64,000 nucleotides of DNA from Candidatus Latescibacterota bacterium (GTDB lineage Bacteria > Latescibacterota > UBA2968), in contig OZ242320.1 in assembly GCA_965208125.1 (NCBI GenBank), forward strand, positions 2,432,001-2,496,000. Direction: 5' to 3'. Position 1 is the stretch's first letter. Each line of letters begins with the position of its first letter. The position numbers were made by a program, and so were the translations under genes. Shown here one piece after another: positions 8,684 through 43,864 of the stretch. The notes beneath the pieces were generated by a model. That model did no database searches. It was given only the letters and a program-made list of their open reading frames with translations, and was not told the origin of the DNA.

Positions 8684-9913
8684 ATGAGGCAGCTTGAAAA
8701 TGGATTGAGTGAACGGACGCTGGCTTTTGAGCCTGGTTTTGAGGTGTACGGTGAGGTGGTGAGTCGCACGTTTCAGCCGTCGTATGTGGTTACGCGCGAC
8801 GGTGTGTTGATCGCCTTTTGTCAGGGCAGGTTACGCGGCGGCCGCGACGACGATCCAAAGGTGATTCTGACGAGCAGGAGCAGGGATTGGGGCGCGACGT
8901 GGTCGCCAGCGAGGGCTGTTTCGGGACGGATCACCCACTACGCGGTGTCTGCGTATCTTTCCGAACGAGATGGACGTGAGCGCGTGTCCGTTCTGTCTAT
9001 GGTTGATTTGCGGGGTACGGAGAATATTTACGACAAGGACTATGGCGAGATGCGGGCGCAGTCCGGTATCGATATCGATGCCGTGGGGCGCGATACGCCT
9101 ATGGTTCTTTGCCGGTTTGATTCGGATGATGATGGCGATACCTGGACTATGGAGACGTTGCTCGGGGACCGGTCGCCTCTGAATCACTGCTATTCCGATG
9201 GTACGCTGATTATGTTCAACGCGGTGGGGCAGGTTCACGCGATTTCTGAAGGTCCTTATCGGGGGCGGTACGTTCTGGGGGGACCTGTTACTGTGGTGCC
9301 CGAGGGAGAGGCCGTTACGAATTATTTTCGCAACCATCCCCAGTCCGGTTCTGCCGTTATTTATAGCGATGATCAGGGCGAGACCTGGCGCGTGGATGGT
9401 TTTATTACGGATTATCTGGCTAACGAAGCTTCCGCTGTGTCGATCAATCGCGGTGAGGAGTTGCTGCTCGTCCGCAGGCTGAATTCGCGCGGTATGCTTG
9501 AAGCTCACGTTCCCTTCTCGGATGTGCGTCCCGGTTCTGTGCAGCGCATTGCCCATACTTCGACGGATTGCGGAAAGACGTGGTCCAGACCCTTTCTCGT
9601 CGATATCAGTGGGGTGCTCTGCCACGGCACACTTGCCCGGGGCGGGAGGCGTCTGCTCTTTTCTATTCCCAATGGCTCCGGTCTGCCCGAATCCGAGCGG
9701 CAGCACGCCACAGAGCGCCAGCGCGGTGCGATCTATTTTAGCGATGACGAAGGTCAGGCATGGCGCCATAAGGTTATCGAACCAGAGACTTTCTCCTACA
9801 GCACTGTTGGTCCCCTCAATGAATCCCAGTATATCACGCTCTACGCATGCAGTTCCATGGGGCAGGAGGGCGTCGGATGTCGGGTGTTTGAGGATGCGTG
9901 GCTGGATGCTTAG
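8684..9913 (+). CDS. Sialidase-like (GH33/BNR) Asp-box protein
   Basis: Five Asp boxes: SRDWGATW, SDDDGDTW, SDDQGETW, STDCGKTW, SDDEGQAW; ANEAS and FSYS motifs. Confidence 0.75.
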   Translation: MRQLENGLSERTLAFEPGFEVYGEVVSRTFQPSYVVTRDGVLIAFCQGRLRGGRDDDPKVILTSRSRDWGATWSPARAVSGRITHYAVSAYLSERDGRERVSVLSMVDLRGTENIYDKDYGEMRAQSGIDIDAVGRDTPMVLCRFDSDDDGDTWTMETLLGDRSPLNHCYSDGTLIMFNAVGQVHAISEGPYRGRYVLGGPVTVVPEGEAVTNYFRNHPQSGSAVIYSDDQGETWRVDGFITDYLANEASAVSINRGEELLLVRRLNSRGMLEAHVPFSDVRPGSVQRIAHTSTDCGKTWSRPFLVDISGVLCHGTLARGGRRLLFSIPNGSGLPESERQHATERQRGAIYFSDDEGQAWRHKVIEPETFSYSTVGPLNESQYITLYACSSMGQEGVGCRVFEDAWLDA

Positions 9914-24366: not shown

Positions 24367-26019
24367 ATGATCGTTTCCATAGACAAACTTCAAACCTGGA
24401 TGGACGCCAGGGAAGATGAACATCTGGAGTTCAAAGAGGCAAAGAAAAATTTCCACTTTGAGTCCCTGGTAAAGTACTGTGTCGCCCTCGCCAATGAAGG
24501 CGGTGGAAGGATGATTCTGGGCGTAACGGATAAACTACCGCGTAAAGTGGTTGGCAGCCAGGTTTTTCCAGATCTCGAAAAGACAAAGGCCGACCTGATC
24601 GAAAGGTTACGGCTTCGCATGGATGTCGAGGAGATTTCGCATCCAGACGGCCGGGTTCTGGTTTTTCAGATTCCCTCTCGACCAATCGGTATGCCTGTGC
24701 AGTATAAAGGTGCGTATTGGATGCGTGGAGGTGAAAATCTTATTCCAATGACCCCCGACTTGCTCCAACGCATTTTTGCCGAGTCTGGTCCCGATTTCTC
24801 GGCGGAGATTTGTACGTCTGCCCAATTGGGAGATCTCGATCCAAATGCTGTGGAGGTTTTGCGCCAACTCTGGCAGTCTAAGTCGCCGGATCAGGACATA
24901 TCGGGCCGTCCGATAGAGCAACTCTTGTCAGATGCCGAGTTGGTCGTCGATGGTCAGGTGACTTACGCGGCATTGATTCTTCTTGGCAAGCGGAAAGCTC
25001 TGGGCAAATATCTTGCCCAATCGGAGGTCGTCTTTGAGTACCGATCGAATGAAGCACCGGGACCAGCAGCGGAACGACATGAGTTCCGGCAGGGATTCCT
25101 CTTAGTACTCGACGAAATCTGGCGGCTTATTAATCTGCGTAATGACCGACAATCGTTCCAGCAAGGACTCTTTGTGTGGGATGTGCCTACTTTCAATGAG
25201 CGCGTAGTGCGCGAGGCTGTCTTGAATGCGGTGAGTCACCGCGATTATCGCCAAGGAGGATCGGTCTTCATTCGACAGTATCCTCGGCGTATTGAGATTG
25301 TTAGCCCTGGTGGCTTTCCGCCCGGTATCACACCTGACAATATCCTTCGGCAACAAAATCCGCGCAATCGTCGTATTGCCGAAGCTCTCAGCAAATGCGG
25401 ATTGGTCGAACGCGCCGGACAAGGATTTGACTTTATCTTTAGCGAGAGCATCCGACAGAGTAAACCTTTACCTGACTTTTCCCATACAGATGCTTACTCC
25501 GTATCGCTCACACTTCACGGCGAGATTCAAGATCCCGAGTTTCTGCGTTTTCTGGAAGAGATTGGTCAAGAAAGAGTGACAGCATTCGGTATCAACGATT
25601 TTTTGGTGGTCGATCTCGTCCATCGCGAGCAGCCTGTTCCTGACGATTTACAATCAAGGGTTAGTCATCTGCTGGAACAGGGAATCATTGAGCGCGTGGG
25701 ACGCGGACGGGGTGTGCGGCTCATGCTCTCCCGGCGGTTCTATCGGCATATTGGTAAGCCGGGGACTTATACACGTAAGCGTGGATTGGACCGCGAAACA
25801 AATAAGGAGTTGCTGCTAAAGCACATTCGAGATAACCGGAAAGAAGGAAGTCAGTTAAAGGAACTCGTTCAAGTGTTGCCATCCCTGTCGTACGTCCAGG
25901 TTCAGAAATTACTTCAAGATTTGAGAATTAAGGGACAAATCCACAAAGTAGGGAACACTAAAGCCGCTCGTTGGTACCCGGGAATCTCTCCATCTGGAAT
26001 TATGCCTAAAAATAAATAA
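24367..26019 (+). CDS. AlbA_2/Schlafen-like domain plus RecG C-terminal (HATPase-like) and wHTH protein
   Basis: EDEHLEFKEA, ALANEGGG.MILGV, REAVLNAVSHRDY, SPGGF, PRNRRIA, VERAGQG. Confidence 0.85.
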   Translation: MIVSIDKLQTWMDAREDEHLEFKEAKKNFHFESLVKYCVALANEGGGRMILGVTDKLPRKVVGSQVFPDLEKTKADLIERLRLRMDVEEISHPDGRVLVFQIPSRPIGMPVQYKGAYWMRGGENLIPMTPDLLQRIFAESGPDFSAEICTSAQLGDLDPNAVEVLRQLWQSKSPDQDISGRPIEQLLSDAELVVDGQVTYAALILLGKRKALGKYLAQSEVVFEYRSNEAPGPAAERHEFRQGFLLVLDEIWRLINLRNDRQSFQQGLFVWDVPTFNERVVREAVLNAVSHRDYRQGGSVFIRQYPRRIEIVSPGGFPPGITPDNILRQQNPRNRRIAEALSKCGLVERAGQGFDFIFSESIRQSKPLPDFSHTDAYSVSLTLHGEIQDPEFLRFLEEIGQERVTAFGINDFLVVDLVHREQPVPDDLQSRVSHLLEQGIIERVGRGRGVRLMLSRRFYRHIGKPGTYTRKRGLDRETNKELLLKHIRDNRKEGSQLKELVQVLPSLSYVQVQKLLQDLRIKGQIHKVGNTKAARWYPGISPSGIMPKNK

Positions 26020-26416: not shown

Positions 26417-28864
26417 ATGGAGATGCAAAAGAATATCATGAGAGTTTTCATTTTGGTAGGGTATATATATTTGGGATTATGTCAAAGTGCGAATGCCCAA
26501 ATTATGATCACAGGCAAAATTGTCGATGCTGATAGCGGACAGCCATTAGAGACTGCTAATATTAGAGCTAAGGATACGTTTTTTGCAACGATATCTAATG
26601 AAGATGGTGTGTTTGTGCTCGAGGTCTCGGAATTTCCTGTCACGTTGATCATTACGCATATTGGATATGCAGATCAGAGGGTTTTGGTGAATGAGGCTGC
26701 TGAAATCCCGTCTATCAGAATGCAGCCTGTGGCATACCCATTTGAGGAAATTATTGTAACGTCTGATATGGGATCGACAATTATGCAAAGAGTCATTGAG
26801 CAAAAGGGTCAATGGCGACCAAATCTGAAGCGTTTTAAGGCGATGGCATATACGCGGCAAGTCGCTGAAAATCTCGAAGGCGAAGCGCGCATTGTCGGGA
26901 TAGGGGATCTCGTATCTGAAATGCATTGGGATCGCGATAAAGGTTCCCGTGAAGTCATCCTGTCTAAACGCCATACCAAAAACGTCCCGGAATGGTTACA
27001 AACCTATTCCATCGTTAAACCTCTTTATTCACTACCCAATATTTATGATGACGAGGTTTTTTTTGCGGGAAACCGTATTATTGGTCCAACTCATCCAGAT
27101 GCACTCAATTTTTATCATTTTCAGTTGCGTGAGCAACAATACAATGGGGAACAGATTATCTATGAAATATCCCTGCGCCCTAAGACCAAACTCCAACCGG
27201 CTTTTATGGGCCGGGTATTTGTTTTGGATGAAGCCTTTGTGATTTTACGAGCCGAATTAGAGCTCAGTTCTATTATATATTCAAGTGCGCCCTTAGCCAG
27301 AGTAAAAACTTCCTTTCTCCAGCAATTTCAGGAGTTTGGGGACGATATGTGGTTGCCCATTGATTTTCACCTGCAGATTGAGGGAAGCGGAGGTATTCCC
27401 GGATTGTTTCGCACTGCCAGGGGCAGACTGACGTTGATTACACAGTTGAAAAATTTTGAGATAAACCAACAATTTGCCACCCAGATCTACGAGAGGGGCC
27501 AGATTGTTTCGGTTGATGATGTTTCCGTTCGAGAGGACAGCTTATTTACAAAATTTTCAGATAGAATGCCCTTTTCAGAAAGAGAGGAGAAGGCTTATGG
27601 TGAAATTGATGAGAAGTTGACGATTCGCAAGGCATTCCCACCTTCTGGTCCTCTGGCGCGTTGGACCACAATGAGCCTGGGACCGTTGAGGTCACCAGAC
27701 CCGTCTCAGACTCCCAGGGGGTATAGATGGGTTTTTAGTTGGGGAAAGGGCGGAGACTATAATCGCGTCAGTATGGCGGAAATGAGGGCGAGAATGGGTT
27801 TTGGCGTGATCAATTCAGCTACGGGAAGGCGAGATAGGTTGTTCCTTGAAGGTGGATATGCTCAGGGTCCCGCCCGCTGGCTTTATCGCGCTGAATTTTG
27901 GCACGAATGGGGCAGGACCCGTCTTTCGAGGAACCAGGGGCGACTGAGTGTTCGTCATCGAGCCGGTATTGCTGAACGGTATTATTCGTATCATTACGGT
28001 TTTCGCCCGGTAGGCAGGATTTTATCTACGAATAATATCCTCTCGCTATTGGGTTGGGAAGATTACTACGACTATTATTGGAGAGAATCTACAGATGTGG
28101 TATTTTTTCAAACTTTTTTAGAAAGAAAAGCGGGACTGATCGTTGGGTTTCACGATGAGAAGCATTCTTCGCTGGGCAAGCAGACGGATTTCAATATTTT
28201 GGGAAGAGATAAAATACAACGTATAAATCCACCTGTTGATGAAGGTCGGCTCCGTTATATTGATTTCAGATTTTATTTTGCAAAGTCTCGTTATAAGCGT
28301 GCGACTGCTCGGGTTGAATGGGGTTCTTCAGATCTCTTAAAGAGCGATTTCTCTTATGTCAAATACGAATTGGATTTTGATTGGCGTATTGAAACATTTT
28401 TGAAGCGTCGCGCAAGACCCAATGTTTTAGATGTTCGCGTTACGGCTGGCACTTTTACGGGTGATTTACCCGTACAGCGTTTTGGCGTTCTGGATGTTTG
28501 GCGTCCTTTCACTTCGTTTGGCACTTTTAAGCATTTGAATGGCTATCCCTATGAAGGCGAAAAATATTTCGGTGTGTACTGGCAGCACAATTTTCGCTCT
28601 GCGCCTTTTGAGATGTTCAATATGGAATATTTGGCAAAAAGAGGCTTTGATATCATGCTTCATGGCGGATCGGGACGAACCTGGATATCGAAAGAGAAAT
28701 TGGATATGCTACAATATCAACCCCAGGTTCTCGATAAGTTCTATCACGAAGCGGGTATTTCTTTAAACATGTATCATGTGATTCGCATTAACGCGACCAA
28801 AAGGCTGGACGAGGATGGATTTTCAATACGAGCTAATTTTACACTGATGAGGCCCCAATTATGA
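26417..28864 (+). CDS. Outer-membrane protein with N-terminal carboxypeptidase-regulatory-like domain (DUF5686-like)
   Basis: Signal peptide; ITGKIVDADSGQPL..ANI, TISNEDGVF.L, THIGY; beta-rich C-terminal region ending in aromatic strands. Confidence 0.7.
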   Translation: MEMQKNIMRVFILVGYIYLGLCQSANAQIMITGKIVDADSGQPLETANIRAKDTFFATISNEDGVFVLEVSEFPVTLIITHIGYADQRVLVNEAAEIPSIRMQPVAYPFEEIIVTSDMGSTIMQRVIEQKGQWRPNLKRFKAMAYTRQVAENLEGEARIVGIGDLVSEMHWDRDKGSREVILSKRHTKNVPEWLQTYSIVKPLYSLPNIYDDEVFFAGNRIIGPTHPDALNFYHFQLREQQYNGEQIIYEISLRPKTKLQPAFMGRVFVLDEAFVILRAELELSSIIYSSAPLARVKTSFLQQFQEFGDDMWLPIDFHLQIEGSGGIPGLFRTARGRLTLITQLKNFEINQQFATQIYERGQIVSVDDVSVREDSLFTKFSDRMPFSEREEKAYGEIDEKLTIRKAFPPSGPLARWTTMSLGPLRSPDPSQTPRGYRWVFSWGKGGDYNRVSMAEMRARMGFGVINSATGRRDRLFLEGGYAQGPARWLYRAEFWHEWGRTRLSRNQGRLSVRHRAGIAERYYSYHYGFRPVGRILSTNNILSLLGWEDYYDYYWRESTDVVFFQTFLERKAGLIVGFHDEKHSSLGKQTDFNILGRDKIQRINPPVDEGRLRYIDFRFYFAKSRYKRATARVEWGSSDLLKSDFSYVKYELDFDWRIETFLKRRARPNVLDVRVTAGTFTGDLPVQRFGVLDVWRPFTSFGTFKHLNGYPYEGEKYFGVYWQHNFRSAPFEMFNMEYLAKRGFDIMLHGGSGRTWISKEKLDMLQYQPQVLDKFYHEAGISLNMYHVIRINATKRLDEDGFSIRANFTLMRPQL

Positions 28865-29865
28865 ATTTGAAGCCCAAATTTTCGGTGATTATCCCAACAT
28901 ATAATCGCGCAAATTATATTGGGGAGGCTGTTGAGAGCGTTTTGCAACAGACGTATCAGGGTTTTGAACTCATTGTGGTGAATGATGGTTCTACGGATGA
29001 TACGGCAGAGGTGATCAGCCAGTTTGGAGATCGGATTTGCTATGTTGAAAAGGCAAATGGTGGGAAGGCGTCTGCTGTGAATCTGGGTCTGAAATATGTG
29101 ACGGGTGAGTATGTTTGGATTTTGGACGATGATGATATCGGGTTGCCGAATAAGCTCGAGTTGCACGCGGCGCAGTTTGCAGAAGATCCGGATTTGAAGT
29201 TTGTCTATACGGGTTATGAATTCATAGAGGGTGAGAGAAGCGATTTGCCCGTGCGGTCTTTTGAAGCGAGGATGCCGCCCATAGGCGATATGGTGATGTA
29301 TTTGTTTGGGCGGTTTGAGTTGTGCAGTCCCACTGTGGTTGCCCATCGGATGTGTTATGAGAGGGTCGGCTGTTTTGACGAGCGTTTGATTCGCGGGCAA
29401 GATTACGATATGTGGATTCGCATGATACGCGCCGGGTTTAAAATTGGGATTATTAAACAACCCACGCTTCGATGTCGCATGCATGAGGGTGATCGAGGTT
29501 CGGCGTCTGATCGCTTTTCTGCGAGCGATATAAGAAAAAAGAATCGGGAATATCTGGGGCTTATTGTGCAGAAGTTGTATTGGGAGTTGCCTCTACGGGC
29601 TTTTTACAGTCGTTTGGCTCAAGATCCAAATGACCCGATTTTGATTCTGAAGGCGCTGTTGAGGCGTTTGTGGGTGATGCCCCTCGCGCTACAGGACGAG
29701 GTGTTGCGCGATCTGGATATGCTGGAAAGACATGTCGAACAGCATCGCTTGTCTTTTGATGATTCTGCCAACCGTTTTTTGATAAGTCTAAAAAATACAA
29801 CAGAACAAACCACACCCCGTGTTGCCAAAAAGGTTGAAAAAATTCTAAATATGACACATGATTAA
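28861..29865 (+). CDS. Glycosyltransferase family 2
   Basis: SVIIPTYNRA, VVNDGSTDDT, NGGKASAVN.G, ILDDDD, GQDYDMWIR; ATGA overlap with the upstream gene. Confidence 0.92.
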   Translation: MNLKPKFSVIIPTYNRANYIGEAVESVLQQTYQGFELIVVNDGSTDDTAEVISQFGDRICYVEKANGGKASAVNLGLKYVTGEYVWILDDDDIGLPNKLELHAAQFAEDPDLKFVYTGYEFIEGERSDLPVRSFEARMPPIGDMVMYLFGRFELCSPTVVAHRMCYERVGCFDERLIRGQDYDMWIRMIRAGFKIGIIKQPTLRCRMHEGDRGSASDRFSASDIRKKNREYLGLIVQKLYWELPLRAFYSRLAQDPNDPILILKALLRRLWVMPLALQDEVLRDLDMLERHVEQHRLSFDDSANRFLISLKNTTEQTTPRVAKKVEKILNMTHD

Positions 29866-33230: not shown

Positions 33231-33358
33231 GTGTATCCTTATATATACAGTATGTCCTATTGTTTACATTATTAATATCTATATAAATCAATTAGTTATG
33301 AGTATTTTATTTTATAAACGTTTGTAAGTGTATCCTTTCAGATACACTTGTATCTGAA
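33231..33358. promoter_or_regulatory. Candidate enhancer (UAS) palindromes and IHF site
   Basis: Perfect AAGTGTATC-N6-GATACACTT (33326-33349); degenerate GTGTATC-N6-TATACAG (33231-33250); overlapping TTCAGATACA-CT-TGTATCTGAA (33337-33358); IHF consensus AATCAA-TTAG-TTA (33286-33298). Confidence 0.65.
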
Positions 33359-33409
33359 TGTCGCATTTACAACACACGTAATTCTTAAATTTTATTTCCT
33401 TGTTTTTTT

Positions 33410-33442
33410 AAGCACTTGAGCTTTTTCAAGTGCTTTTTTTTT
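33410..33442 (+). terminator. Hairpin with U-tract just upstream of the sigma54 promoter
   Basis: AAGCACTTGA-6 nt-TCAAGTGCTT followed by a T run. Confidence 0.5.
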
Positions 33443-33456
33443 GATAGAACGATTTG

Positions 33457-33472
33457 TGGCACGAATTTTGCA
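33457..33472 (+). promoter_or_regulatory. Sigma54 (-24/-12) promoter
   Basis: TGGCACGAATTTTGCA matches the consensus TGGCACG-N4-TTGCA with exact GG-N10-GC spacing, 47 nt before the precursor ATG. Confidence 0.9.
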
Positions 33473-33519
33473 ATATGAAGGGCAGAGATAGCATTTAAAT
33501 TCTCAATAAGGAGGATACC

Positions 33520-33702
33520 ATGGCAACGCCACGCAAGTTGAATTTGATCAATGGAACGATAGATACAGAGGGTGATATTCAAACACTTCGGTCCGCAGAT
33601 AGTCTCAAAATTGGGGGATGTCCAGCTGGCTGGCCATCTGTTCCTCCCCTGCCTTTTCCCAATGACGATGACGATAGGGACGATCTTGAGCGCCCGGAGT
33701 GA
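33520..33702 (+). CDS. RiPP precursor peptide (60 aa)
   Basis: Strong RBS AAGGAGGA (33508-33515); first ORF after the sigma54 promoter; directly upstream of the rSAM/SPASM gene; leader KLNLING...DSLKIGG-C, Pro-rich core, acidic tail. Confidence 0.8.
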   Translation: MATPRKLNLINGTIDTEGDIQTLRSADSLKIGGCPAGWPSVPPLPFPNDDDDRDDLERPE

Positions 33703-33730
33703 ATCATCTCTGTCCTGAGGATTACCCGAC

Positions 33731-35161
33731 ATGCTGTGCATTCAAAAATGCGACATGCATCTTTTTCAAACTGAAGAACACAAACAGCCTGTTGCCTATC
33801 AGGTTGAGACGGGTCTGTTTTTTGAATTGGATCCCCATTTCCAGGCAATTTTAGCGTGTTGTGAGGGCTTGTCGGCTTCACAGGTTGTCCAGAGGTTGAC
33901 CGATCAATACGAGGCAGAGGAAATTGCCGAGGCCATTGAGGAATTGGTACAGGTGGGTTTGATTTCAGATGGTGCATTACCCTTGGTGTCCCAGGTGCCG
34001 ACGACAGAGGGGATGGCAGCCTGTGGGGTATCGCAGACAGATCGTTTGCAGGTGTCCTTGCACGTTTCGCATACGTGCAATATCCAATGTGCGTATTGCT
34101 TTGCTCACGGTGGAGATTATGGCGGTAAGGCTATGCTGATGCAATCCGATGTTGCCGAGCAAGCCATACGCTGGATCGTCACCGAGGCTCAGGTGTTCGG
34201 ACGGTGCCAGATTGATTTCTTTGGCGGGGAGCCGCTCTTGAATTTTCCATTGATTCAGGAGCTTGTCCCATTTGCCAAATCCCTGGGCGCGCGATTGGGT
34301 GTGCAGGTTGGTTTTGGTATTGTGACCAATGGCACGTTGTTGACTGACGAGATGAAGCAGTTTTTGGTTGATGAAAAGTTTCAGATTAAGGTCAGCCTGG
34401 ATGGTGGGCGCAAAACACAGGACCGCATTCGCAAGTTTCACAATGGTTCTGGCACTTATGATGTTGTGGCAAAGAATGTACAGAAATTGACTGATGAGGT
34501 GCCTGAGCGCGTGTATTTGCAGGCTATTATGACAGCGTATGATATGGACGAGGATCAGATTGCCGATGCGTTGCGTTCTCTGGGTACTGATAACGCGCTC
34601 ATCGGTCCGGCTGTTGTTTCACCTGATGCGCCTTATGCTATTGGGGAAGAACACATACCCGTTTTGAAGCAACAAATTTACAAGCGCAGCCGGCGTGCGC
34701 TCAAAGCCATTTTAAGTGGTGAAGAAAGTGAAGAGTTTGATCCGCGGATTCAAAAACTTTTGACGCGCGCAAAATCCTGTCACGGGTGCTTGGGTGGCAA
34801 GCAGTATTTGGCGATTGCAGCGGATGGGTCGATTTATTTTTGCTCGAGTTTGGCCGATGCGCCCGAGTTTAAGATGGGTGATGTGTTTTCGGGTATTGAT
34901 CGCGAAAAGCAGCAGCATTTTGACGCGCAGTTCAATGTGAATAATCGTCCTGAGTGCAAGACGTGCTGGGCGCGCAATTTGTGTGGTGGCGGGTGTCTTT
35001 GGGAGGCGAGGACGACGACGGGTGACCCAATGTATCCAAACCCTGTTGCTTGTGAACAGACGCGCTATCGCTATGAACTGGCGATGGAGATGTGTATGGA
35101 GATAGCAGAGGAGGATGCGTCTTTGTTGCAGCGACGATATGATCTGGAAGTGGCTTCATAA
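33731..35161 (+). CDS. Radical SAM/SPASM peptide maturase with N-terminal RRE (PqqD-like) domain
   Basis: CNIQCAYC (CxxxCxxC), FFGGEPLLN, VTNGTLL, VSLDG; SPASM cysteines CLGG...IYFC...CKTCWARNLCGGGC...C; N-terminal ~75-aa strand/helix domain ending EAIEELVQVGLI. Confidence 0.93.
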   Translation: MLCIQKCDMHLFQTEEHKQPVAYQVETGLFFELDPHFQAILACCEGLSASQVVQRLTDQYEAEEIAEAIEELVQVGLISDGALPLVSQVPTTEGMAACGVSQTDRLQVSLHVSHTCNIQCAYCFAHGGDYGGKAMLMQSDVAEQAIRWIVTEAQVFGRCQIDFFGGEPLLNFPLIQELVPFAKSLGARLGVQVGFGIVTNGTLLTDEMKQFLVDEKFQIKVSLDGGRKTQDRIRKFHNGSGTYDVVAKNVQKLTDEVPERVYLQAIMTAYDMDEDQIADALRSLGTDNALIGPAVVSPDAPYAIGEEHIPVLKQQIYKRSRRALKAILSGEESEEFDPRIQKLLTRAKSCHGCLGGKQYLAIAADGSIYFCSSLADAPEFKMGDVFSGIDREKQQHFDAQFNVNNRPECKTCWARNLCGGGCLWEARTTTGDPMYPNPVACEQTRYRYELAMEMCMEIAEEDASLLQRRYDLEVAS

Positions 35162-35226
35162 ACCACTGGAGGAGCAGGATCAGAACAGGTCTCCTGGTAT
35201 ATTCCCTGACCCGGGACGCCTGTTTC

Positions 35227-35271
35227 AAGCATACAGGTGTGACGAATATCTATTGTCAGGCCTGTATGCTT
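35227..35271. repeat. Intergenic REP-like stem-loop between the rSAM and methyltransferase genes
   Basis: AAGCATACAGG..TGAC-loop-GTCA..CCTGTATGCTT. Confidence 0.55.
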
Positions 35272-35317
35272 AAAGCCGCCACGCGCATGCCAAAGTAATC
35301 CAATAGAGAAGTGAGAA

Positions 35318-36226
35318 ATGCATAAAATTTCAGACCTCAAAATACCGGATCGGCTTAATCTGAATGCAGGTTGGAGCATTGGTGAGACGGCGTTTGAGAG
35401 AATTAGAACCACGCTTCTTGAGATGTCCCCAGTAGAAAGAATTCTCGAATTTGGGAGTGGTCCGAGTTCTGTCCGGCTGGCTATGGCGTTTCCCGAAGCG
35501 CAGGTTTTGTCTGTGGAAGGTGATTGGCGGAATTTTGCAGAGACCACGAGTCTGATGCGATCATTCTGGGATCAACACAATCTATCGATCAAATATCGTC
35601 CGATTACTCTTGAATCTTATGGAGACGCGGAATTTTTGACTTATGAATATGGGATGTTCTGGGAGGAAGAGATAGATTGCGTGATTATTGATGGTCCACC
35701 TGTCTATACCTTGCGAGGTCGAGAAGCCTGTCTCTACCAGGTTTATGATCAGGTCAAGATTGGTGGTCTGGTCATCCTGGACGATTTCAGAAGGTCTTAT
35801 GAGAAGCAAATTGTCGAGAACTGGCTGTCCGTCTATCCCGGCAGTTTTACAGTGGAAATGATCCGCGAAGACCACCATCTGGCCGTGTTGCGTAAGATCA
35901 AATCTGTGACACCGTGTTGGGATGCGCCTTATAGGCTTTCGGATGTTCAGTCTGTCAGCGAAACGCTCTCCCGCATTACACAGGCATTATCGCAGGTTGA
36001 TGATGTGTATTTGAGAACGCTGGCCAAAGCGAATAATTGCTCTGAAACAGATCTGATTGGCCTGTTCAATACCATTCGCAACATCTATGGGGTGACGCCT
36101 GAGCGCATCCAGGAGTTCATGAGCGGAAATTCTATACTTTCACCAGACGTTCAAAAAAGAAAACAGAATGCCTGTTATATGACAATCGTCAACGCGTTTT
36201 TTCGAGACGCTCAGTTTTCACATTAA
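35318..36226 (+). CDS. Class I SAM-dependent methyltransferase-fold protein with helical C-terminal extension
   Basis: ILEFGSGPSS (motif I), VLSVE, CVIIDGPP, GGLVILDD. Confidence 0.7.
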   Translation: MHKISDLKIPDRLNLNAGWSIGETAFERIRTTLLEMSPVERILEFGSGPSSVRLAMAFPEAQVLSVEGDWRNFAETTSLMRSFWDQHNLSIKYRPITLESYGDAEFLTYEYGMFWEEEIDCVIIDGPPVYTLRGREACLYQVYDQVKIGGLVILDDFRRSYEKQIVENWLSVYPGSFTVEMIREDHHLAVLRKIKSVTPCWDAPYRLSDVQSVSETLSRITQALSQVDDVYLRTLAKANNCSETDLIGLFNTIRNIYGVTPERIQEFMSGNSILSPDVQKRKQNACYMTIVNAFFRDAQFSH

Positions 36227-41455: not shown

Positions 41456-43864
41456 ATGCTGCGTAATTATCTGGTTGTAGCGGTTCGGAATCTGTTGAAT
41501 AATAAAATCTTGTCAATGATCAACGTTTTTGGACTAGGAGCAAGTCTGTCGATCTGCCTGCTGATCATCTTGTTTGTGTCATACCAAAAAACGTCTGATG
41601 CATGGCACAAGAAGGCAGATCGTATCTATCTCACCATCTGCGACTACCGTTCGCCCACCCAGCCTGATCGTGTTCGCTCCTACGCAACGACACCTGCGAG
41701 TCTTGCTTCGCTTCTTCAAGATATCTGCCCAGATGTAGAAGTGACGACACGGTTACGCAGATTCCGTGGTTCCATGGGCTTTCCCGGCAGTCAAAGTCAA
41801 ATTAAAGTGTCTGGCCTTTATGCCGAGCCGTCGTTTTTCGAGGTATTCGATTTCGCTCTTGTGGAGGGGAATCCCGCTACCGCGCTTTCCGAACCCAATT
41901 CCATCGTGCTTTCGCAGAACCAGTCGGTTGCATTATTTGGAGATTCCAGCCCACTGAATCAGACTGTGATGATCGGACAGACGCCATACAAGGTAACGGG
42001 CGTCCTGGCGGATCCGTTAGGGGCCAGCTATGTACGGTTTCAGATCTTGGTGTCGTTTGAGACCTTGAAATTTGCGCCACCCCGCGGCATTCCTCAGTGG
42101 AGCGATGGCATGAATGACACATACACATTTTTGGTCTTACGAGAAGGTACCCACCCAACGGTCCTGGAAAGATACTTCACACAGATCATTCAAGACCACT
42201 ACCAGCCTGGTACAGATCGACAGATAGAGAGGGCAAGTGCCCAATTACTGACCGACCTCAACCTGAGCGTCATGAGAGTTAACCAACTTAGTTGGATGGT
42301 TCCTGGCATGGCTGTTTATTTTGTTAGTGTTCTGGCCGCTATAATACTGATAGGGGCGTGCTACAATTATACCAACTTAATTGTGGCCAGAGCAATGGCC
42401 AGAGCCCACGAGGTGGCAATTCGGAAAGTCGTAGGTGCATATCGCAGACAGATCATTGGCCAAATATTGGTGGAGTCGATTCTAACAGTATTGCTGGCGA
42501 CGTTTTTTGCCATGTGGCTGTTGGTATGGTTAATTCCTGCTTTCAACGAGATGTTCTTTACTTCATTTTTTCCCTTGGCCCGCATCAAGCTCGACGTTCT
42601 CAAAGATCTGACGGTCTATCTCACTGTCCTTGGCTTCATCGTAGGCGTAGGCATTCTTGCGGGCACCTACCCCGCACTTCATCTTTCCCGATTCGTCCCA
42701 GTCTTGATCTTGAAGGGAGGAAGTTTTACAAAGGATCGAGCCAAGTCATTCAATCGGATGTTTGTGGTGGGGCAGTTTGGCATGTCGTTATTCTTCGTCC
42801 TCTCGACCCTGTTCGTGTACCAGCAGTTCCGATATATGGTATCGTCCGACTATGGATTTGATCATGAAAATATAGTGAACGTACGGCTTCAGGGAGTGGG
42901 CTACGACGTGTTCCGGCAGGCGATGGAGCAATCGCCCTCAGTGGAGCTCATTTCTGGTTCCTCACAGATTCTGATGCAGGGTGAGCGATCAGAACGTTCG
43001 GTGACGATTGGGAGAGGTGATCCTAAGACAGTTTCAGTTTCCGAATTAATAGTGGACTACAATTTTGTTTCGAACCTGAAACTCAAGCTACTTGCAGGCC
43101 GTTACTTCAATCGCCCATCGGATATTCACAGGAGTGTGCTGCTCAATAGAACCGCTACTCGGTTGCTAGGTCTGGAAAACGAAGAGCAAGCGATAGGTCA
43201 AATCTTGAACGTGTCAGGGAAGAACACGAAACCTACCATTGTGGGGATTCTGGAAGACTTTCAGACATATGGCATAGGCATGGATATTGATCCTGTCATA
43301 CTGCTCTGTGAGCCAGCGCGTATAAATTGGGCAAACGTGCGCGTGTTACCCGGCCATATGCCTGAGGCGGTTGCGCACCTCGAACAGGTCTGGGCTGAGT
43401 TAGGAAGTCCTTGGAAAGTGGAGTACGATCTGTTTACGACGCAAATCCAAAAAGGAATGCTCGCTGGAGTCTATTCCGATGTTTTGCATATCATTGCTCT
43501 GATTAGCGCTTTCGGGGTGCTTTTGGCCTTACTTGGCATGTTGGGAATAGCTATGCATGTCATGGAAATGCAGGTCAAGGCAGTTGCAATACGCAAGGTT
43601 CTGGGAGCGAGTTCTTGGCAGATCGCTGTGCTCTTGTCAAAGGATTTTCTCTTGATGCTTGTTGTGGCGGTTCTACTTGCAGCTCCTGCTGCGTGGTTTG
43701 CAAACCACCTCTGGTTAAACCAGTTCCCCCTCCGAACCACAATGAGTCCGTGGCTGTTCGGTGGTGTTGTTGCCGTGATGGCAGCAGTTGTTCTCACAGT
43801 AGTTGGGTCGCAGACGCTTCGTGCAGCGAATTCCGACCCAGTAAAGGCACTCAGACGTTTATAG
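41456..43864 (+). CDS. ABC transporter permease, duplicated MacB/FtsX type
   Basis: MLRNYLVVAVRNL, INVFGL, NYTNL..AR...RAHEVAIRKVVGA, GQF, AIRKVLGAS, AANSDPVKALR. Confidence 0.9.
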   Translation: MLRNYLVVAVRNLLNNKILSMINVFGLGASLSICLLIILFVSYQKTSDAWHKKADRIYLTICDYRSPTQPDRVRSYATTPASLASLLQDICPDVEVTTRLRRFRGSMGFPGSQSQIKVSGLYAEPSFFEVFDFALVEGNPATALSEPNSIVLSQNQSVALFGDSSPLNQTVMIGQTPYKVTGVLADPLGASYVRFQILVSFETLKFAPPRGIPQWSDGMNDTYTFLVLREGTHPTVLERYFTQIIQDHYQPGTDRQIERASAQLLTDLNLSVMRVNQLSWMVPGMAVYFVSVLAAIILIGACYNYTNLIVARAMARAHEVAIRKVVGAYRRQIIGQILVESILTVLLATFFAMWLLVWLIPAFNEMFFTSFFPLARIKLDVLKDLTVYLTVLGFIVGVGILAGTYPALHLSRFVPVLILKGGSFTKDRAKSFNRMFVVGQFGMSLFFVLSTLFVYQQFRYMVSSDYGFDHENIVNVRLQGVGYDVFRQAMEQSPSVELISGSSQILMQGERSERSVTIGRGDPKTVSVSELIVDYNFVSNLKLKLLAGRYFNRPSDIHRSVLLNRTATRLLGLENEEQAIGQILNVSGKNTKPTIVGILEDFQTYGIGMDIDPVILLCEPARINWANVRVLPGHMPEAVAHLEQVWAELGSPWKVEYDLFTTQIQKGMLAGVYSDVLHIIALISAFGVLLALLGMLGIAMHVMEMQVKAVAIRKVLGASSWQIAVLLSKDFLLMLVVAVLLAAPAAWFANHLWLNQFPLRTTMSPWLFGGVVAVMAAVVLTVVGSQTLRAANSDPVKALRRL

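Follow-up and report, generated by a model that had tools for sequence, protein, structure and literature searches.

Known cassettes of small peptides and radical SAM maturases

Two-gene cassettes of the SCIFF type, which pair a small peptide with a radical S-adenosylmethionine (SAM) enzyme, are widespread. A locus with this general layout lies in a 64,000-nucleotide stretch of the genome of a Candidatus Latescibacterota bacterium (contig OZ242320.1, positions 2,432,001 to 2,496,000; this whole stretch is referred to as the window). It encodes a precursor peptide with a single cysteine, followed by a maturase with an N-terminal recognition element (RRE) for ribosomally made peptides that are modified after translation (RiPPs), a radical SAM core, and a SPASM domain. 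We consider it probable that the locus is a self-contained, sigma-54-dependent RiPP cassette from a lineage-restricted branch of the ranthipeptide type, and that its product carries one cysteine-based macrocycle.

The clostridial SCIFF systems CteA/CteB (thermocellin) and ScfA/ScfB share with this locus the order of two genes, a small cysteine peptide and then an RRE-radical SAM-SPASM maturase, and neither has a linked protease or exporter. They differ in the precursor, which has six cysteines in about 45 residues in SCIFF and here has one cysteine, a proline-rich and acidic core, and no match to the SCIFF model. They also differ in control, which is here by sigma-54 and a kinase-STAND activator, and in distribution, which is here restricted to part of Latescibacterota. 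Among other maturases, QhpD, which modifies QhpC of quinohemoprotein amine dehydrogenase, is described as forming Cys-Asp and Cys-Glu thioethers, and the ranthipeptide NxxcA is described as having one thioether bridge, between Cys23 and Asn20 (PMC8326336). PapB, the freyrasin maturase, is described as linking Cys to Asp or Glu, with Cys-Xn-Asp spacings of n = 0 to 6 tolerated (PMC9413430).

For metagenome-assembled genomes (MAGs) of sponge Latescibacterota, an antiSMASH survey lists "ranthipeptide" and RRE clusters, with no further analysis (PMC12993501). A second survey of sponge MAGs has ranthipeptides among its RiPP classes and does not tie them to Latescibacterota (PMC11832590). The locus embodies no new principle, as automated tools already flag such clusters in the phylum. 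Our search of the literature found no account of this peptide family, of a single-Cys proline-rich core, or of sigma-54/kinase-STAND control; the supplementary datasets of RRE-associated radical SAM enzymes and precursors of PMC10288494 may list the family.

A peptide/maturase pair conserved in part of Latescibacterota

The same genome has a second cassette, with an enzyme 92% and a peptide 61% identical to those of the window, an exact TGGCAC-N5-TTGCA motif, and a similar regulator of 1636 aa. The pair is also present in 36 further Latescibacterota loci. Among genus loci with upstream DNA, 31 of 32 contain the family peptide as a full open reading frame (ORF), and the 32nd keeps the core with a shortened start. 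In most loci, the peptide ORF ends 21 to 28 nt before the radical SAM gene. A second family of the same taxonomic order, with enzymes about 50% identical, has an ATG-started peptide ORF in three of four loci, and likewise in L020 and L023; in the fourth locus, the peptide is in frame and no ATG was found.

At E ≤ 1e-30, the enzyme was detected in 26 of 61 related genomes. It occurs in 15 of the 20 genus genomes, where the number of matches ranges from one to three and is mostly two or three, at 87% to 93% identity, and the search of the other five returned no radical SAM match. At E ≤ 1e-60, a sample of the whole phylum has the enzyme in 26 of its 168 genomes and 7 of its 49 genera. Judged from these matches, only part of Latescibacterota has the system.

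The original prediction had described a strong ribosome-binding site, a 60-aa ORF, and a radical SAM gene 28 nt further on, and had proposed that peptide and enzyme form a precursor/maturase pair. All of these elements are present as described. The pairing is borne out by the small ORFs at homologous loci, which are family peptides in both the genus and the second family, by selection on the peptide, and by a predicted leader complex.

Precursor peptide and region-specific selection

The precursor can be divided into a leader (residues 1 to 20; KLxLxNG..EGxI), a linker, Cys34, a hypervariable loop (35 to 40), a VPPLPFP segment (41 to 47), and an acidic run (48 to 55). Residues I20, C34, V41, P42, L44, P45, F46, and P47 are invariant in 45 genus peptides, in which the KLxLxNG..EG leader and the Asp run are almost invariant. 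When the distant family is added (32 aligned peptides), M1, L7, N11, G18, I20, and C34 stay invariant, so that Cys34 is present in every peptide of both alignments (45 and 32 sequences). Second-family peptides follow the pattern ..(I/V)N(G/A)..D..G.(I/L)..~14..C.WP.FP.LPPP.

Ratios of nonsynonymous to synonymous substitution (dN/dS) in 33 genus genes are 0.28 for the leader, 0.45 for the linker, 0.95 for the loop, 0.12 for VPPLPFP, and 0.11 for the acidic run; as the compared sequences are related, these figures are descriptive and not a test. At the Cys34 codon of the 33 genes, the nonsynonymous value (pN) is 0 and the synonymous value (pS) 0.92, with frequent exchange of TGT and TGC. As far as comparison of sequences can establish, these patterns show that the gene is translated, that its leader is conserved and a single cysteine essential, and that six residues between fixed anchors vary freely. 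Such selection fits a precursor peptide. The ORF is short, and it might instead be an untranslated 5′ leader of the radical SAM mRNA. That explanation is scarcely credible in view of the strong, region-specific purifying selection amid abundant synonymous change, the cysteine codon included, and of the AGGAG(G/A) that every aligned locus keeps 5 to 8 nt ahead of the peptide start codon. Public gene callers have also called peptides of 61 clusters, just one of which has a source name, "hypothetical protein".

A profile of the peptide, searched against 1.84 billion representative sequences, returned 19 matches, 17 of them 47 to 121 aa long; ten of these 17 were read, and all ten have the family pattern. 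The other two, P0194 (2689 aa) and P0199 (642 aa), match leader positions 6 to 26 only, in 16 and 5 repeated stretches, respectively, and this likeness to a repeat unit is probably due to chance. The Atlas search with the peptide had a top score of 0.75 and gave no lead. In L024, a locus of another family of the class, the presumed precursor is split over two frames about 210 to 245 nt before the radical SAM start, with a leader-like ..LRLVNG.. and a core-like ..SCYPDYPMFPWP..; an assembly indel or a broken gene is possible.

Placement of the maturase

The maturase has Pfam matches to PqqD/RRE (residues 21 to 74; 24.2 bits, cut-off 23.4), Radical_SAM (112 to 280), and SPASM (353 to 413). The radical SAM motif CxxxCxxC is present as CNIQCAYC at residues 116 to 123, and the seven SPASM cysteines (C353, C371, C409, C412, C418, C422, and C441) do not vary among the 15 aligned family members. 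The motif, the full cysteine set, and the RRE that the original prediction had read from the sequence are thereby confirmed.

Four NCBIfam models score highest, each below its cut-off: the SCIFF maturase (TIGR03974; 260.3 bits, cut-off 425), QhpD (TIGR03906; 255.1 bits over residues 16 to 468, cut-off 453), the nif11-like peptide maturase (TIGR04064; 253.6 bits, cut-off 518.7), and the PapB family (NF047865; 229.9 bits, cut-off 340). Relatives of the maturase at 50% and 42% identity rank the NCBIfam models in the same order. The nearest solved structure is CteB (5wgg; E = 6.7e-58, residues 24 to 452). Outside the phylum, the nearest relatives in the genome collection are Firmicutes proteins of 27% to 33% identity, and the three that were scored are true SCIFF maturases, with 509 to 727 bits on the SCIFF model. 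These SCIFF maturases reach 270 to 300 bits on the PapB, QhpD, and nif11 models, which is similar to the scores of the Latescibacterota enzymes. The latter therefore appear to be a branch of their own within the super-clade, separated from SCIFF by about the distance that separates SCIFF from the other thioether maturases. Because the maturase falls within the SCIFF/QhpD/PapB/nif11 thioether super-clade, a placement that rests on hidden Markov model scores, its class is most likely ranthipeptide-like. The original prediction had held that the peptide core matches no class, a view that this placement does not favor.

The anaerobic sulfatase-maturing enzymes (anSMEs) also combine a radical SAM core with a SPASM domain, and sulfatases are modified at a C-x-P-x-R motif. 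The maturase might accordingly serve the genome's many sulfatases, with the small ORF beside it incidental. The maturase and its paralogue are the genome's only matches to the anSME model (TIGR03942), and the C-P-P-G-R of the paralogue's peptide is compatible with the sulfatase motif. This explanation is nevertheless highly improbable. The maturase reaches only 113.4 to 113.9 bits (below the cut-off of 349.45), an anSME structure in the PDB aligns with the SAM core alone (E = 1.9e-16, compared with the full-length CteB match), C-x-P-x-R is not conserved among the peptides, and 5 of the 20 genus genomes searched are without a radical SAM match. We reject it because 12 matches to the FGE-sulfatase domain in the genome cover oxygen-dependent maturation, because the maturase has an N-terminal RRE, which anSMEs are not known to carry, and because its substrate appears to be a dedicated, co-conserved peptide under selection.

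The near-equal scores of the QhpD and SCIFF models (255 and 260 bits), together with the lack of a linked protease or exporter, could instead point to a peptide that, like QhpC, serves an enzyme as a cross-linked small subunit or as a carrier of its cofactor. The invariant Asp run of the genus peptides is a further likeness to the QhpD/QhpC system; the second-family peptides are without it. However, none of the cassettes examined has a conserved dehydrogenase subunit gene beside it, the neighbors in the window being genes for a regulator, a methyltransferase-like protein, a family 2 glycosyltransferase (GT2), and a DUF4403 protein. The presence of two to three cassettes per genome with hypervariable loops is also a better fit to a diversifying peptide. 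A subunit role is thus very unlikely.

Predicted binding of the leader by the RRE

A maturase-peptide complex predicted from both alignments scored 0.75, compared with 0.03 for the best of three controls; the mark applied to this score is met by 58 of 80 solved complexes and by 2 of 110 mismatched pairs. The runs share at least 50% of contacts, and the partner has a predicted local distance difference test (pLDDT) value of at least 47. In the model, peptide residues 5 to 14, which hold the KLxLxNG leader, pair with enzyme residues 28 to 34 and pack on residues 68 to 75, so that the leader is predicted to be bound by the RRE as an added beta-strand. CteA is described as binding in the same mode, with its leader as a strand on the RRE of CteB (PMC8326336).

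Sigma-54 promoter and upstream regulator

At the genus level, all 33 loci have the sequence GGCAC-N5-TTGC 57 to 79 nt upstream of the peptide start codon, and all 8 loci of the second family have an upstream GG[CT]A[CT]-N5-TTGC element. The looser sigma-54 pattern has a background of 0.062 per kb over all loci, real sites counted in. Within the window itself, the promoter motif at up to one mismatch has 1 match where 1.44 are expected, and 75 of 100 shuffles have at least one, a count that is not beyond chance. The weight of the promoter therefore comes from its conservation among relatives and not from the window count. A 497-aa open frame with the genome's one Sigma54_AID match (51.2 bits) is taken as the probable rpoN. 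The exact sigma-54 promoter of the original prediction is thus present, conserved, and located beside the gene of a candidate activator. At the distant loci L062 and L024, neither a sigma-54-type motif nor a clean family peptide ORF was found, and these two loci are excluded from the counts.

The dedicated regulator gene (Table 1), which the original prediction did not include, encodes a protein with a Sigma54_activat domain scoring 246 bits in Pfam. In 36 of 36 related loci that reach far enough, among them those of the family at 50% identity and one locus at 42%, a regulator homologue of 1590 to 1683 aa ends about 520 nt before the radical SAM start. This kinase-STAND-GAF-sigma-54 activator is the most constant partner of the peptide/maturase pair. 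All other copies seen (27 ORFs) are 1590 to 1683 aa long and have a tetratricopeptide repeat (TPR) segment, whereas the window regulator is without this TPR/MalT-like sensor segment of about 510 aa between AAA_16 and GAF, the gap being in frame. Its shortness may reflect a real deletion or an assembly error. Column identity among 23 full-length regulators is 0.61 to 0.77 in the TPR region and 0.72 to 0.77 at the helix-turn-helix (HTH) end, compared with 0.85 to 0.92 in the kinase and AAA+ domains. The low conservation of TPR and HTH fits paralogue-specific sensing and DNA recognition, without proving either. Eleven loci have, in the same place as L005 13803-14840, a 345-aa sigma-54 activator 3′ of the maturase; this protein, which belongs to one paralogue lineage, has AAA+ and HTH domains only and no sensor domain.

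Two palindromes precede the promoter in the window, and related loci have palindromes of a similar kind at about -129, -210, and -230. The type varies by paralogue, being TGTAT..ATACA in the window lineage and TGCAT..ATGCA in another, while a third lineage fits neither. The regulator may bind at these palindromes. The CAAGTGCTTTTTTT hairpin element is visible in the upstream alignment of related loci.

Table 1 Features of the cassette and its upstream region, with positions in the window
Feature	Position	Strand	Remarks
Dedicated regulator gene, 1093 aa	29938-33219	+	Pfam: Ser/Thr kinase, AAA_16 (STAND) NTPase, GAF, sigma-54 interaction AAA+, HTH_8
Candidate activator-binding site 1, TGTAT-N8-ATACA	33232-33249	.	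Palindrome 226 nt upstream of promoter GG
Candidate activator-binding site 2, AAGTGTATC-N6-GATACACTT	33326-33349	.	Perfect inverted repeat I6, TGTAT-N8-ATACA type; 129 nt upstream of promoter GG
Terminator-like hairpin AAGCACTTGA/TCAAGTGCTT, then T run	33410-33445	+	Between regulator gene and promoter, 3′ of palindromes
Sigma-54 (-24/-12) promoter TGGCACgaattTTGCA	33457-33472	+	Exact TGGCAC-N5-TTGCA; GG 33458-59, GC 33470-71
Ribosome-binding site AAGGAGG	33508-33514	+	5 nt 5′ of peptide ATG
Precursor peptide gene, 60 aa, single Cys	33520-33702	+	ORF
RRE/radical SAM/SPASM maturase gene, 476 aa	33731-35161	+	Start 28 nt past peptide stop
Methyltransferase-like gene, 302 aa	35318-36226	+	ORF; same strand as cassette

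Habitat and RNA libraries

By their record titles, the related contigs are uncultured Candidatus Latescibacterota MAGs, one being labelled Poribacteria. DNA runs holding parts of the stretch (shares of 0.11 to 0.22) are mostly labelled sponge metagenome. The habitat is taken from these run labels and record titles only, and they agree with the uncultured symbiont lineage originally proposed.

Relatives of the locus are stored as assembled contigs in four metatranscriptome runs from two studies. Among the 236 RNA-library records compared, 28 are at least 99% alike. One contig of 1618 nt runs from the peptide leader through a divergent core into the enzyme gene, and another of 821 nt joins the 3′ end of the enzyme gene to the methyltransferase-like gene. 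In one study, RNA-library contigs of a relative end 44 to 47 nt before position 33532; the coincidence of these ends with the expected sigma-54 start is a weak hint. Bins 33300 to 33501 are without RNA cover, possibly owing to intergenic divergence at the 85% threshold, and nothing is concluded from them.

Proposed mechanism and nature of the product

In the proposed mechanism, the kinase-STAND-(TPR)-GAF-AAA+-HTH regulator would bind the palindromes, which lie some 130 and 230 nt upstream of the promoter, and, upon a signal, open the sigma-54 promoter. One transcript would then carry the genes for the precursor and the maturase, and probably that for the methyltransferase-like protein. The N-terminal RRE of the maturase is predicted to take the KLxLxNG leader as an extra beta-strand. 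The radical SAM/SPASM core would act on Cys34, the sole invariant core residue. By homology, the likeliest outcome would be a single thioether from the Cys34 sulfur to a non-alpha carbon in the VPPLPFP-acidic segment or the linker. The resulting ranthipeptide-type macrocycle would close around the variable segment and display the hypervariable six-residue loop.

NxxcA provides a precedent for a product with one cysteine and one ring. It differs in its NxxC motif, which is not conserved here, and NxxcB is not among the named high-scoring models, this comparison being by description. PapB is a thioether maturase of the same super-clade (230 bits, below 340), whereas its substrate has six Cys-X3-Asp motifs and the peptide here a single cysteine.

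Several observations weigh against the proposed cassette and product. As to the enzyme, all four thioether-maturase models lie below their curated cut-offs, so its isofunctionality with any of them is not assured by the scores. The complex score may have passed partly through likeness to the solved CteB-CteA complex, and the core, including Cys34, is not confidently placed in the model. As to the peptide, it has no Pfam or NCBIfam match, precursor models included, and one cysteine in 60 residues where SCIFF has six. The first Asp of the genus peptides lies 14 to 15 residues past Cys34, beyond the n = 0 to 6 of PapB. The second-family peptides have no acidic run, and no acceptor residue is common to the whole peptide family except prolines and one leucine. 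As to the locus, no protease or exporter is conserved around the related cassettes examined, and the window's copy of the regulator, being without the TPR segment, may be misregulated. DNA may be present among the RNA-library contigs, which are a weak hint of expression and do not demonstrate one transcript.

In view of the distance of the Asp run from Cys34 and its absence from the distant family, the acceptor may be a residue of the common proline-rich segment or of the linker. Alternatively, the pair may be a true one with other radical chemistry: a thioether at an alpha carbon, cross-linking of the Trp/Pro-rich core through a C-C or C-O bond, epimerization, or oxidation of Cys34. Such chemistry would be in keeping with an enzyme that is under every curated cut-off and, by the scores of the SCIFF controls, on a separate branch, and with the lack of an Asp, Glu, Thr, or Asn acceptor common to both peptide families. 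The radical SAM/SPASM superfamily is also described as chemically diverse (PMC8326336, PMC10288494). However, the four top models are all Cys-dependent maturases of this group, cysteine is the only universally invariant core residue, and ranthipeptide synthases are described as highly alike among themselves (PMC10288494). We regard other chemistry as unlikely, and a non-alpha thioether at Cys34 as the probable modification.

Methyltransferase-like gene and other neighbors

The original prediction included a gene of methyltransferase fold in the cassette. Its position on the same strand stands, the fold assignment is weak but consistent, and a core role is not upheld. The protein has 19.4 bits (E = 0.002) to the Pfam family Methyltransf_24, short of the gathering threshold of 26.3 bits. 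In a profile built from 21 homologues, residues 32 to 82 match the O-methyltransferase 2gpy in the PDB (E = 2.2e-5), Atlas features place the protein at 0.96 to Methyltransf_24 clusters, and the EFGSGPSS motif, the class I SAM-binding motif I, is invariant in the 21 homologues. The AlphaFold2 model was unusable (mean pLDDT 40.2; alignment of 21 rows, all at least 79% identical). Together, these matches tentatively suggest a class I methyltransferase, which, where present, might add a methyl group. The helical part at the C terminus of the protein is unassigned.

Within about 6 kb downstream, 13 of 32 genus loci have the complete gene and 3 a remnant, the rest having none; over the same distance, the gene is absent from all second-family loci. 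It occurs in 14 of 20 genus genomes and in 0 of 40 genomes outside the genus. The five genus genomes without the enzyme are also without a methyltransferase-like match, and one genome with three cassettes has none. Most of the 24 matches adjoin the enzyme gene, some just 19 nt past its stop, and the 156-nt gap between the two genes in the window holds no terminator-like site. The gene is a genus-specific accessory beside some paralogues and not part of the core. A third copy in the same genome, in L083 (C1:1792000-1808000) at 8985-9881, is 81% identical and lies outside any cassette, with no family peptide or radical SAM gene nearby. It has a TGA inside the match, maybe its own stop, and is located about 4 kb past another sigma-54 activator gene.

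The GT2 gene (28861-29865), originally considered a possible tailoring enzyme, precedes the regulator gene in nine loci, and a 27-aa remnant is present in one more. It is absent from other paralogous cassettes and is treated as a syntenic neighbor only. GT4-type glycosyltransferase genes lie 3′ of the maturase genes in the distant cassettes L058 (7618-8787) and L063 (2576-3775), their products being 25% identical to each other; the recurrence of glycosyltransferases beside cassettes may be coincidence. The downstream DUF4403 gene, the gene of a 383-aa membrane protein, and a 371-aa ORF were rejected as parts of the cassette, being found in none of 39 related loci. Also rejected was a MacB/FtsX-type ABC permease gene (41456-43864) 5 kb downstream, which has one 28%-identical relative only, after the L029 cassette; that relative (L029 8174-10534) is directly 3′ of its cassette, and no exporter is otherwise linked. 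The 395-aa gene past the paralogous radical SAM gene is unrelated to the methyltransferase-like gene and has no Pfam match. In distant relatives, a second radical SAM/SPASM-like gene of 25% to 32% identity follows the maturase (L062 2674-4050, L063 1096-2511, G034, G058, G025, G028). The two products checked are missing CxxxCxxC and keep CxxCx5Cx3C, and may be non-catalytic partners. Elsewhere in the window, an unrelated ORF at 24367-26019 has Schlafen AlbA_2 and HATPase_c_4 domains and lies among genes for thiamine pyrophosphate enzymes and glycosyltransferases.

Implications for the Latescibacterota peptides

A more far-reaching reading sees a new RiPP class, each cassette being its own private circuit of peptide signalling, in which a ring between Cys34 and the proline segment, an acceptor type that would be new, would present a loop read by the TPR sensor of the cassette's own activator, for autoinduction or kin discrimination among sponge symbionts. 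The presence of two to three cassettes per genome, each with its own palindrome type, fits such circuits, as do the freedom of the loop to vary and the low conservation of TPR and HTH, the least conserved parts of the regulator. We nevertheless think it decidedly unlikely. The PPLP and Asp-rich-Trp motifs of the peptide bear a likeness to eukaryotic proline-ligand motifs and acidic Arp2/3-binding motifs, and the peptide might conceivably be a host-directed mimic.

For a ranthipeptide-type product, the single donor cysteine means that there is one ring to solve, and the 61 peptide clusters constitute a library of naturally occurring loop variants. Should the acceptor be in the proline-rich segment, the ring would be a new thioether topology for peptide engineering. 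The lineage is uncultured, sponge-associated, and out of reach of genetics. The cassette has a recognizable on-switch in its sigma-54 promoter, paralogue-specific palindromes, and kinase-STAND-TPR-GAF activator, and could be used to ask which signal activates such systems and what their product does.

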